Assembly: GCF_003334405.1 (NCBI RefSeq)
Contig: NZ_QOWM01000003.1
Direction: 5' to 3' (one strand)
Length of the DNA stretch: 64,000 bases
DNA from: Escherichia coli
Lineage (GTDB): Bacteria; Pseudomonadota; Gammaproteobacteria; Enterobacterales; Enterobacteriaceae
The translations under genes were made by a program, and so were the position numbers. The notes under the pieces are model-generated. The model did no database searches and was not told the DNA's origin. It saw only the letters and a list, made by a program, of their open reading frames with translations. Shown piece after piece: positions 58,501 through 61,510 of this stretch. Each line of letters begins with the position of its first letter. Position 1 is the first letter of the stretch.

Positions 58501-59544
58501 ATGAGCGAGAACTCGATTCGTTTGACCCAATACAGCCACGGAGCTGGTTGCGGCTGTAAAATTTCCCCAAAAGTGTTGGAAACCATCCTGCATAGTGAGC
58601 AGGCGAAGTTTGTTGATCCGAATTTGCTTGTGGGTAATGAAACCCGCGACGATGCGGCGGTGTACGATCTGGGCAATGGCACCAGCGTTATCAGTACCAC
58701 CGACTTCTTTATGCCGATCGTTGATAATCCTTTCGATTTTGGCCGCATTGCGGCGACTAACGCCATCAGCGATATCTTCGCGATGGGGGGCAAACCGATT
58801 ATGGCGATTGCGATCCTCGGCTGGCCGATTAACAAACTTTCCCCAGAAATTGCCCGCGAAGTGACCGAAGGTGGACGCTATGCATGTCGTCAGGCGGGTA
58901 TTGCGCTGGCTGGCGGTCACTCCATCGATGCGCCGGAGCCGATTTTTGGTCTGGCGGTAACGGGGATCGTACCGACCGAGCGGGTGAAGAAAAACAGTAC
59001 CGCACAAGCCGGATGCAAACTGTTCCTGACGAAACCGCTGGGGATCGGCGTTCTTACCACGGCTGAGAAAAAATCACTGTTGAAACCAGAACATCAGGGA
59101 CTGGCGACGGAAGTGATGTGCCGGATGAACATCGCAGGCGCGTCCTTTGCCAACATCGAAGGCGTAAAAGCGATGACCGACGTTACGGGCTTTGGTCTGC
59201 TGGGCCACTTGAGCGAAATGTGTCAGGGGGCTGGTGTGCAGGCACGCGTCGACTATGAAGCGATCCCGAAACTCCCCGGTGTTGAAGAGTACATTAAGTT
59301 GGGCGCAGTACCTGGCGGCACTGAACGTAACTTTGCCAGCTACGGTCATCTGATGGGTGAAATGCCGCGTGAAGTGCGCGATCTGCTGTGTGATCCGCAA
59401 ACTTCTGGCGGTTTGCTGCTGGCGGTCATGCCGGAAGCAGAAAATGAGGTCAAAGCTACAGCCGCCGAGTTTGGCATTGAACTGACGGCAATTGGCGAAC
59501 TGGTGCCAGCGCGCGGCGGTCGTGCCATGGTTGAGATTCGTTAA
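58501..59544 (+). CDS. selD: Selenide, water dikinase (selenophosphate synthetase), 347 aa
   Basis: ORF track 349 aa; start at [23 protein letters not shown] (Cys17-type); PurM-like fold. Confidence 0.93.
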
Positions 59545-59548
59545 TTCA

Positions 59549-61510
59549 ATGCGGTTGTTTATTGCCGAAAAACCGAGTCTGGCGCGCGCCATTGCTGATG
59601 TCCTGCCCAAACCGCACCGGAAAGGCGATGGCTTTATCGAGTGCGGTAATGGTCAGGTGGTGACCTGGTGTATCGGTCACCTGCTTGAGCAGGCGCAGCC
59701 AGACGCCTACGACAGCCGCTATGCGCGCTGGAATCTTGCGGATTTGCCGATTGTCCCGGAAAAGTGGCAATTACAGCCCCGACCCTCCGTGACCAAACAA
59801 CTTAACGTCATCAAACGGTTCCTGCATGAAGCCAGCGAAATCGTTCACGCCGGGGACCCGGATCGTGAAGGGCAATTGCTGGTGGATGAAGTGCTGGACT
59901 ATCTGCAACTGGCACCGGAAAAGCGCCAGCAGGTACAGCGTTGCTTGATAAACGACCTGAACCCGCAGGCGGTTGAGCGGGCGATCGACCGTCTTCGTTC
60001 CAACAGTGAGTTTGTACCGCTGTGCGTTTCTGCGCTGGCGCGAGCGCGTGCCGACTGGCTGTACGGCATCAATATGACCCGTGCGTATACCATTCTCGGT
60101 CGCAATGCCGGTTATCAGGGCGTACTTTCCGTGGGACGCGTGCAGACGCCCGTGCTTGGGCTGGTGGTGCGCCGCGATGAAGAGATTGAAAACTTCGTGG
60201 CGAAAGACTTCTTTGAAGTCAAAGCACATATCGTGACACCTGCCGATGAGCGGTTTACCGCTATCTGGCAACCGAGCGAAGCGTGTGAACCGTACCAGGA
60301 TGAAGAAGGGCGCTTGTTACATCGTCCACTGGCGGAGCATGTGGTTAACCGCATTAGTGGTCAACCGGCTATTGTCACCAGCTATAACGATAAACGGGAA
60401 TCAGAATCCGCGCCGCTGCCTTTTTCGCTTTCAGCGTTGCAGATTGAAGCGGCAAAACGTTTTGGTCTGAGTGCGCAGAACGTGCTTGATATCTGCCAGA
60501 AACTGTACGAAACGCACAAGCTAATCACTTATCCGCGTTCTGATTGTCGCTATTTGCCAGAAGAACATTTTGCCGGACGCCACGCGGTGATGAATGCCAT
60601 CAGTGTTCATGCACCGGATCTGTTGCCGCAGCCAGTGGTAGATCCAGATATACGCAACCGCTGTTGGGATGACAAAAAGGTCGATGCGCACCACGCCATC
60701 ATTCCGACCGCACGGAGTTCTGCGATCAACCTGACGGAGAACGAAGCGAAGGTCTATAACCTGATTGCCCGTCAGTATCTGATGCAATTCTGCCCGGATG
60801 CGGTGTTCCGCAAGTGTGTTATCGAACTGGACATTGCCAAAGGCAAATTTGTCGCTAAAGCGCGTTTTCTTGCTGAAGCAGGCTGGCGCACGCTGTTAGG
60901 CAGCAAAGAGCGCGATGAAGAAAACGACGGCACGCCACTGCCTGTGGTGGCGAAAGGCGATGAGTTGCTGTGTGAAAAAGGTGAAGTGGTAGAGCGGCAA
61001 ACCCAGCCGCCGCGCCATTTTACCGATGCAACACTGCTTTCGGCGATGACCGGGATCGCGCGCTTTGTGCAGGATAAAGATCTGAAAAAGATCCTCCGTG
61101 CGACCGATGGTCTGGGGACAGAGGCAACGCGTGCCGGGATTATTGAACTGTTGTTCAAGCGTGGTTTCCTGACCAAAAAAGGGCGCTATATCCACTCCAC
61201 CGACGCCGGAAAAGCGCTATTCCATTCGCTGCCGGAGATGGCGACGCGACCGGACATGACCGCGCACTGGGAATCGGTGCTGACGCAAATCAGCGAAAAG
61301 CAGTGTCGCTATCAGGACTTTATGCAGCCGCTGGTGGGGACGCTATATCAGCTTATTGATCAAGCCAAACGTACGCCGGTGCGGCAGTTTCGCGGCATTG
61401 TGGCTCCGGGCAGTGGTGGCAGTGCTGATAAGAAAAAGGCTGCACCGCGTAAACGTAGTGCGAAAAAAAGTCCGCCAGCAGATGAAGTCGGAAGCGGGGC
61501 GATAGCGTAA
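59549..61510 (+). CDS. topB: DNA topoisomerase III (653 aa)
   Basis: ORF track 59492..61510; start moved to [19 protein letters not shown], 4 nt after the selD stop; Lys-rich C-terminal tail. Confidence 0.93.

Follow-up and report, generated by a model that had tools for sequence, protein, structure and literature searches.

Here, we describe the junction between selD and topB in a 64,000-nucleotide stretch of Escherichia coli DNA (contig NZ_QOWM01000003.1; this whole stretch is referred to as the window, with positions counted from its first letter). Together with the upstream gene ydjA, the two genes form ydjA-selD-topB, an E. coli K-12 operon that is already known, annotated and mapped and whose co-transcription has already been published. 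The adjacency of selD and topB was reportedly noted in the sequencing papers of Leinfelder et al. in 1990 and DiGate and Marians in 1989. The most satisfactory account of the locus, and one we hold to be highly probable, joins this known operon to translation of topB by reinitiating ribosomes and to a secondary abutment of selD and topB, which would have come about through loss of a selU gene that once stood between them.

All three genes are encoded on the + strand. ydjA (57833-58384; RefSeq b1765), the first gene of the longer transcription unit, encodes a 183-aa protein of the NAD(P)H nitroreductase family (NCBIfam NF008088, 375.8 bits, likewise far in excess of the model's cutoff). selD (58501-59544; b1764) encodes the 347-aa selenide, water dikinase (selenophosphate synthetase), with an NCBIfam equivalog match to NF002098 over residues 1-346 (618.6 bits against a cutoff of 299), and topB (59549-61510; b1763) encodes the 653-aa DNA topoisomerase III, with a full-length match to the NCBIfam subfamily TIGR01056 (1035.1 bits against a cutoff of 515.75). 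The ydjA-selD spacer occupies 58385-58500, and the selD/topB junction reads TAA-TTCA-ATG (59542-59551, + strand), the 4-nt spacer TTCA filling 59545-59548 without a well-placed Shine-Dalgarno (SD) sequence. An earlier note on this DNA had placed the selD stop at 59542-59544, the topB ATG at 59549 and 116 bp between ydjA and selD, all of which are right to the base. The region from 57600 to 61700 aligns in reverse orientation with E. coli K-12 MG1655 with 0 mismatches, which validates the conversion used throughout (window position = 1906509 - K-12 coordinate), and the RefSeq boundaries in MG1655 agree (topB, 1844999-1846960; selD, 1846965-1848008; ydjA, 1848125-1848676). The region is found in all 5,426 complete E. 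coli genomes.

The co-transcription proposed in the earlier note is borne out by published full-length single-molecule RNAs, which span both selD-topB and ydjA-selD-topB (PMC6131387). In the SMRT-Cappable-seq data of Yan et al. (2018; PMC6131387), a reverse-strand transcript running from a transcription start site (TSS) at K-12 coordinate 1848030 to a transcription termination site (TTS) at 1844921 fully covers b1764|b1763; in window coordinates, it starts at 58479, 22 nt 5' of selD, and ends at 61588, 78 nt past topB. This TSS is represented by 207 reads in M9 and 187 in rich medium, with 26 and 24 reads, respectively, ending at TTS 1844921 (PMC6131387). The b1765|b1764|b1763 operons begin at 1848772 and 1848701, corresponding to 57737 and 57808 on the + strand of the window in the divergent sppA/ydjA intergenic region, and all three operon entries are flagged as the “same” as in RegulonDB (PMC6131387). 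Two nested kinds of transcript therefore exist, one from upstream of ydjA (57737 and 57808) and one from a selD promoter (58479), and the mapped selD-topB transcript stops at an intrinsic terminator just past topB. This terminator (61547-61589, + strand), which our terminator scan recovered, consists of a 16-bp hairpin at 61547-61585 and a U run, and precedes ynjI. Its fold has a z-score of -2.68 and is equalled by 2 of 200 shuffles; the centre of the published known terminator (1844943, window 61566; PMC6131387) is the centre of the hairpin, and the TTS at 61588 coincides with the hairpin and U run.

The 116-bp ydjA-selD spacer contains a dedicated selD promoter, which the earlier note had not foreseen. 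It extends over 58444-58479 (+ strand), with a -35 box TTATCA at 58444-58449, a 17-nt spacer, and a -10 box TACCAT at 58467-58472, 7 nt ahead of the mapped TSS at 58479. Both hexamers and their spacing are kept in an alignment of 12 Enterobacteriaceae. The promoter matches the consensus at 8 of 12 positions, under the 9-of-12 threshold of our consensus scan of 57500-63000, which returned no sigma-70-like site on the + strand, the interior of selD included. At the selD/topB junction itself, the sequence scan found neither a terminator-like nor a promoter-like site, and 4 nt offer no space for such elements. Published mRNA abundances are 118 for ydjA, 256 for selD, and 142 for topB (PMC5318159), a pattern consistent with an additional promoter ahead of selD and none ahead of topB.

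These data also bear on whether topB is transcribed mainly from a promoter of its own within the selD coding region, with the co-transcript being incidental. The case for such a promoter lies wholly in the limits of the methods, since SMRT-Cappable-seq favours long RNAs at limited depth and covers two growth conditions, and sites other than sigma-70-like ones escape the consensus scan. Against it, exactly two transcriptional contexts of topB (b1763) are recorded in both media, each beginning at or upstream of selD, and no topB-only operon is defined, the position-sorted operon table being empty between gdhA (TSS 1842307) and selD-topB (PMC6131387). In addition, the + strand of selD is free of promoter-like sites, mRNA is less abundant for topB than for selD, and selD passes the filter of that dataset against intragenic promoters (Gini_mRNA of 0.265, below 0.45; PMC5318159). 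We consider a main promoter within selD extremely improbable, and the case named in the earlier note as refuting co-transcription, an internal topB promoter with no co-transcript, finds no support.

Turning to translation, topB has no usable SD sequence. Its best duplex with the anti-Shine-Dalgarno (aSD) sequence, formed by GAGA at -16 to -13, reaches -2.7 kcal/mol, close to what random window positions give (median, -2.1). selD carries AGGAG at 58490-58494 (+ strand; aSD duplex of -7.4 kcal/mol at -13 to -6), with CAGGAG invariant in the alignment of relatives, and the duplexes of ydjA and ynjI reach -6.9 and -5.1 kcal/mol; published aSD scores are -2.28 for topB and -7.78 for selD (PMC5318159). 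We detected no structure occluding the topB start, the local RNA fold at the junction being unremarkable (z = +0.51), and SD-less de novo initiation at topB may therefore occur. For three other E. coli gene pairs, reinitiation was mostly kept at a distance of +2 nt and almost gone at +38 nt (PMC10666635). Translational coupling of selD and topB is plausible in view of the 4-nt gap, the missing SD sequence, and the conserved spacing, and we lean toward termination-reinitiation as the main route of topB initiation. Ribosomes finishing selD would reinitiate at the adjacent topB AUG, 4 nt after the UAA, and so provide most topB translation, to which inefficient SD-independent de novo initiation may add. 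Both routes together would give a low TopB output, about 27% of SelD's translation per mRNA. Published ribosome densities are 39.6 for topB versus 265.8 for selD, and translation efficiencies are 0.278 versus 1.037, or about 27% per mRNA (PMC5318159).

The length of the gap is conserved among relatives. Across 23 Enterobacteriaceae loci it measures 4 nt in 19, 3 nt in three, and -1 nt in one, and in six Morganellaceae loci it measures 2, 3, or 5 nt, such that all 29 loci examined in these two families fall between -1 and 5 nt. The 19 four-nt spacers comprise 12 different sequences. Since the length is held while the bases vary, length rather than sequence is constrained, which is the pattern that selection for reinitiation would be expected to produce. 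An SD-like GGTGA at -9 to -5 of topB is seen among loci with a wider gap or a different gene upstream, namely in two of four Yersinia and in Hafnia, Serratia, and Edwardsiella (most of the selU-bearing species), which suggests that the tight gap substitutes for an SD sequence. As such, a 4-nt gap is ordinary in E. coli, given that 707 of 2,987 (24%) co-directional gene pairs are spaced by -8 to +6 nt (Huber et al., PMC10666635); the first 56 rows of the table of Burkhardt et al. contain 16 genes with an ORF_distance of at most 8 (PMC5318159).

A SelD profile run against a single genome of each species yielded 80 loci, and we searched each of them for E. coli YdjA, SelD, TopB, and SppA. The earlier note had pointed to conservation of the selD-topB linkage in other Proteobacteria as a check on the pairing, and the linkage proves to be conserved in part. 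In every Enterobacterales locus with enough flanking sequence, sppA lies divergent from ydjA-selD-...-topB, the sole exception being one metagenomic locus (L054), and the same block is present in four Photobacterium species. Beyond these, none of 33 loci from Pasteurellaceae, Vibrio (Vibrio albus), Psychromonas, Aeromonas, Pseudomonas, and other taxa has topB within 10 kb of selD, two of the contigs being too short to exclude it.

In Hafnia, two Serratia, Budvicia, two Edwardsiella, and four Photobacterium, selD and topB are separated by a gene of roughly 1.1 kb (L027, at 11044-12177; also L030, L031, L034, L036, L039, and L044-L047), which was identified as selU, encoding the tRNA 2-selenouridine synthase MnmH/SelU/YbbB (NF008749, 621 bits). 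In the selU-bearing Enterobacterales, the selD/selU junction overlaps or nearly so (TAATG, TAGTG, or an ATG overlapping TGA), and at the selU/topB junction five of six have TGATG or TAATG and Edwardsiella hoshinae a short gap. These overlaps imply that the tight joining of topB to its upstream cistron is older than its contact with selD. The Photobacterium loci have 125-240 nt between selU and topB, an interval that in one species (L044) contains a terminator-like hairpin and a promoter-like site. Adjacency of selD and selU without topB was observed in 20 further loci (one with the genes about 1.5 kb apart), including Pseudomonas, Aeromonas, Vibrio, and Psychromonas. Altogether, selU is the next gene downstream of selD in 30 related loci (counting the partial contig L033 and not the separated L066). 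The adjacency of these two genes in bacteria has been described by Romero et al. in 2005 (PMC1273633).

In the window, tblastn with Hafnia SelU gave no match. The selU gene of E. coli K-12 is located at b0503, beside allS, and its product is most similar among the sampled copies to those of Hafnia, Edwardsiella, and Serratia (56-59% identity), a similarity that weakly favours relocation over foreign replacement. A neighbor-joining tree of concatenated SelD and TopB reproduces the family structure of the Enterobacterales. On this tree, selU-bearing junctions are found in the outgroup, the Hafniaceae, Budvicia, and Serratia, and selU-less junctions in the Enterobacteriaceae and Erwiniaceae (4 and 17-18 nt), Yersinia (32-52 nt), and the Morganellaceae (2-5 nt). 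Parsimony over the tree and the junction types gives at least three losses of selU, and it is probable that the ancestral order was ydjA-selD-selU-topB and that selU was lost independently at least three times. The Enterobacterales ancestor would have had overlapping stop and start codons at both junctions, and in E. coli, where selU (mnmH/ybbB) now resides at b0503, its departure would have brought topB against selD.

The earlier note had called the pairing of a selenium-metabolism enzyme with topoisomerase III functionally unexplained. This is overstated, as relatives carry selU between the two genes and their abutment is most simply a by-product of its leaving. With selU lost from between selD and topB, no selenium-topoisomerase link is needed to account for the pairing, and no biochemical tie of selenophosphate synthesis to topoisomerase III would be required. 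A real functional link, by which selenium metabolism (selenophosphate or selenouridine tRNA modification) and topoisomerase III were selected for co-regulation, would be in keeping with the persistence of ydjA-selD-(selU)-topB across Enterobacterales and Photobacterium and with topB having stayed tight after selU left. However, topB is not within 10 kb of selD in the 33 other loci (with the two short contigs among them), selU and topB are parted by the hairpin and promoter-like site in Photobacterium L044, and the conserved block also holds sppA and ydjA, as inherited synteny would. Our literature search found no published functional link between selD and topB, only an operon label in a transposon-directed insertion-site sequencing (TraDIS) table, in which “selD-topB” is given as the operon of selD (PMC8803141), and the comparative-genomics papers on selenium utilisation make no mention of topB, topoisomerase, ydjA, or nitroreductase. 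There is thus hardly any likelihood left for a link of this kind.

Several points weigh against the combined account of reinitiation and selU loss. Its evolutionary part rests on parsimony over 46 loci and one neighbor-joining tree, and no selU remnant was found at the E. coli selD/topB junction. The limited depth of SMRT-Cappable-seq and its selection for long RNAs also leave room for weak initiation from an internal topB promoter under other conditions. Coupling of selD and topB, if operating, is inefficient, the ribosome density on topB being 15% of that on selD and its translation efficiency 27%, which makes the coupling weak at best. Genome-wide, the spread in relative translation is similar for tight or overlapping pairs and for other pairs, and ORF-wide mRNA structure predicts translation efficiency (Burkhardt et al., PMC5318159; ORF, open reading frame). 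With topB being the more structured of the two in vivo (Gini of 0.516 versus 0.44 for selD; PMC5318159), this greater structure could explain its low translation efficiency without any coupling.

These same observations are the core of a different explanation, in which selD and topB are co-transcribed yet uncoupled, SD-less initiation at topB is independent with a rate set by ORF-wide structure, and the gap reflects genome compaction. The topB start region, UUAAUUCAAUG, is moreover A/U-rich and without unusually stable structure, which would suit independent initiation. However, the gap is held at -1 to 5 nt in 29 species although the spacer bases change freely, and topB came once more to lie no further than 5 nt from a stop codon each time selU is inferred to have been lost, Yersinia and the Erwiniaceae excepted. 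The appearance of the SD-like GGTGA where the gap is longer or another gene lies upstream likewise argues against it, and reinitiation in E. coli works at comparable distances (PMC10666635). On balance, uncoupled translation is a minority possibility that deserves to be taken seriously, and reinitiation remains our preferred reading. A stronger version of the latter, in which TopB output is linked by design to how well any gene that happens to lie upstream is translated, and selection re-made gaps of at most 5 nt after at least three selU losses while the SD sequence decayed, would be a long shot. If true, it would mean that expression of the selenium-utilisation operon sets topoisomerase III dosage and may be functionally connected to it.

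With respect to known systems, the locus is the same as that of the selD-topB and ydjA-selD-topB units of RegulonDB and EcoCyc, with identical sequence, boundaries, start sites, and terminator and no difference. The junction resembles closely spaced or overlapping cistrons coupled by termination-reinitiation, such as trpB-trpA and galT-galK (cited in PMC5318159) and hyfH-hyfI, ydbH-ynbE, and menD-menH (tested in PMC10666635). Its two genes are co-directional and share one mRNA, its stop and start codons are separated by 4 nt and so belong to the -8 to +6 spacing class, its downstream SD sequence is weak, and its spacing is conserved among orthologues. Unlike in those pairs, there is no overlap between the codons of selD and topB (+4, as opposed to -1 or -4) and the products are not subunits of a complex. 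The apparent efficiency is also low, about 27% per mRNA. In mechanism, selD-topB falls among the closely spaced cistrons that are capable of such coupling.

The closest evolutionary relative of the arrangement is the selD-selU operon (PMC1273633), with selD followed by selU in Hafnia, Serratia, Edwardsiella, Budvicia, Photobacterium, Pseudomonas, and Aeromonas. In the first five of these genera, where topB lies downstream, selD is the positional orthologue of E. coli selD. In contrast, selU is missing at this place in E. coli and all sampled Enterobacteriaceae, and topB fills the position after selD. The significance of the E. coli locus itself is small, as its operon, promoters, and terminator are already in RegulonDB and published long-read maps and 4-nt junctions are among the commonest in E. 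coli. The sole, modest addition is comparative, in that the selD|topB junction appears to be a residue of an ancestral selD-selU-topB. The range of junctions among relatives (overlapping, 2-5, 17-18, and 32-52 nt) also offers a natural series for the co-evolution of reinitiation distance and SD strength.

Alternative gene boundaries and products were considered as well. An in-frame ATG at 58495 was rejected as the selD start, as it is unconserved in relatives and the spacing of AGGAG fits 58501 instead. The topB frame stays open upstream as far as a TTG at 59492, and TopB homologues align from residue 1 of the protein starting at 59549 wherever topB directly follows selD or selU, in any relative frame. 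A SelD-TopB fusion by frameshift or readthrough was rejected, given that the relative frame varies (gaps of -1, 2, 3, 4, and 5 nt) and homology begins at Met1.

Downstream of the ydjA stop and ahead of the selD -35 box, an inverted repeat occupies 58395-58441 (no strand assigned), with 15-nt arms GAAACTGTCTGGATT and AATTCAGACACTCTC and a 17-nt spacer. The two arms are kept, together with a TGAGCA in the loop, in Enterobacteriaceae where ydjA abuts selD; the alignment shows no covariation, and the fold of the ydjA-selD spacer is not unusually stable (z = -0.45). The repeat may serve as a palindromic binding site for a regulator, or else form a weak hairpin or ydjA terminator. A riboswitch or other structured RNA at the junction or in the spacers was rejected on the basis of the two z-scores, +0.51 for the junction and -0.45 for the ydjA-selD spacer, and of an Rfam search in E-value mode over 57600-61800, which returned 0 matches.

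Upstream of the operon, the divergent sppA-ydjA intergenic region spans 57673-57832 (160 bp). The published sppA TSS (K-12 1848791, window 57718, minus strand) fits a promoter-like CTGACA-17-TACGAT at 57752-57724, and with the ydjA TSSs at 57737 and 57808 on the opposite strand, the divergent promoters overlap. Several Enterobacteriaceae have a gene encoding about 250 aa on the minus strand between ydjA and selD (L004, 8996-9745; L011, 9005-9757), and the spacing suggests the same arrangement in L006, L014, L015, L019, L022, and L029. By eye, the intervening gene resembles a class A (PhoN-like) acid phosphatase. Such a gene would break ydjA-selD co-transcription, so that selD-topB must have its own promoter in those species; the loci concerned, some of them among the 12 aligned Enterobacteriaceae, keep the selD promoter hexamers and a selD-topB gap of 3-4 nt. 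In L054, an AT-rich metagenome-assembled genome of an uncultured Enterobacterales (9652-13504), ydjA is lost and sppA directly flanks selD. A 528-nt noncoding gap parts selD from topB there, and no other Enterobacterales locus has a noncoding separation that long.

Downstream of topB, the next ORF is YnjI (DUF1266) by NCBIfam, with an annotated ynjI start at 61638. A mechanically called ORF at 61515-62678 (387 aa, GTG start) adds 41 codons to ynjI and crosses the topB terminator hairpin. This N-terminal extension (61515-61637) was dismissed as an ORF-calling artefact, since the NCBIfam match starts at residue 42, in agreement with 61638. In the best-scoring of the other E. coli genomes (H1-H8), query matches at ynjI are split, with the pieces about 777 bp wider apart than in the window, and each of these genomes has an IS1-family transposase annotated inside the DUF1266 gene. 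At least 80% of the 5.1-kb query is covered in one place in only 3,500 of the 5,426 E. coli genomes, and ynjI therefore seems to be a recurrent site of insertion sequence (IS) insertion or variation.

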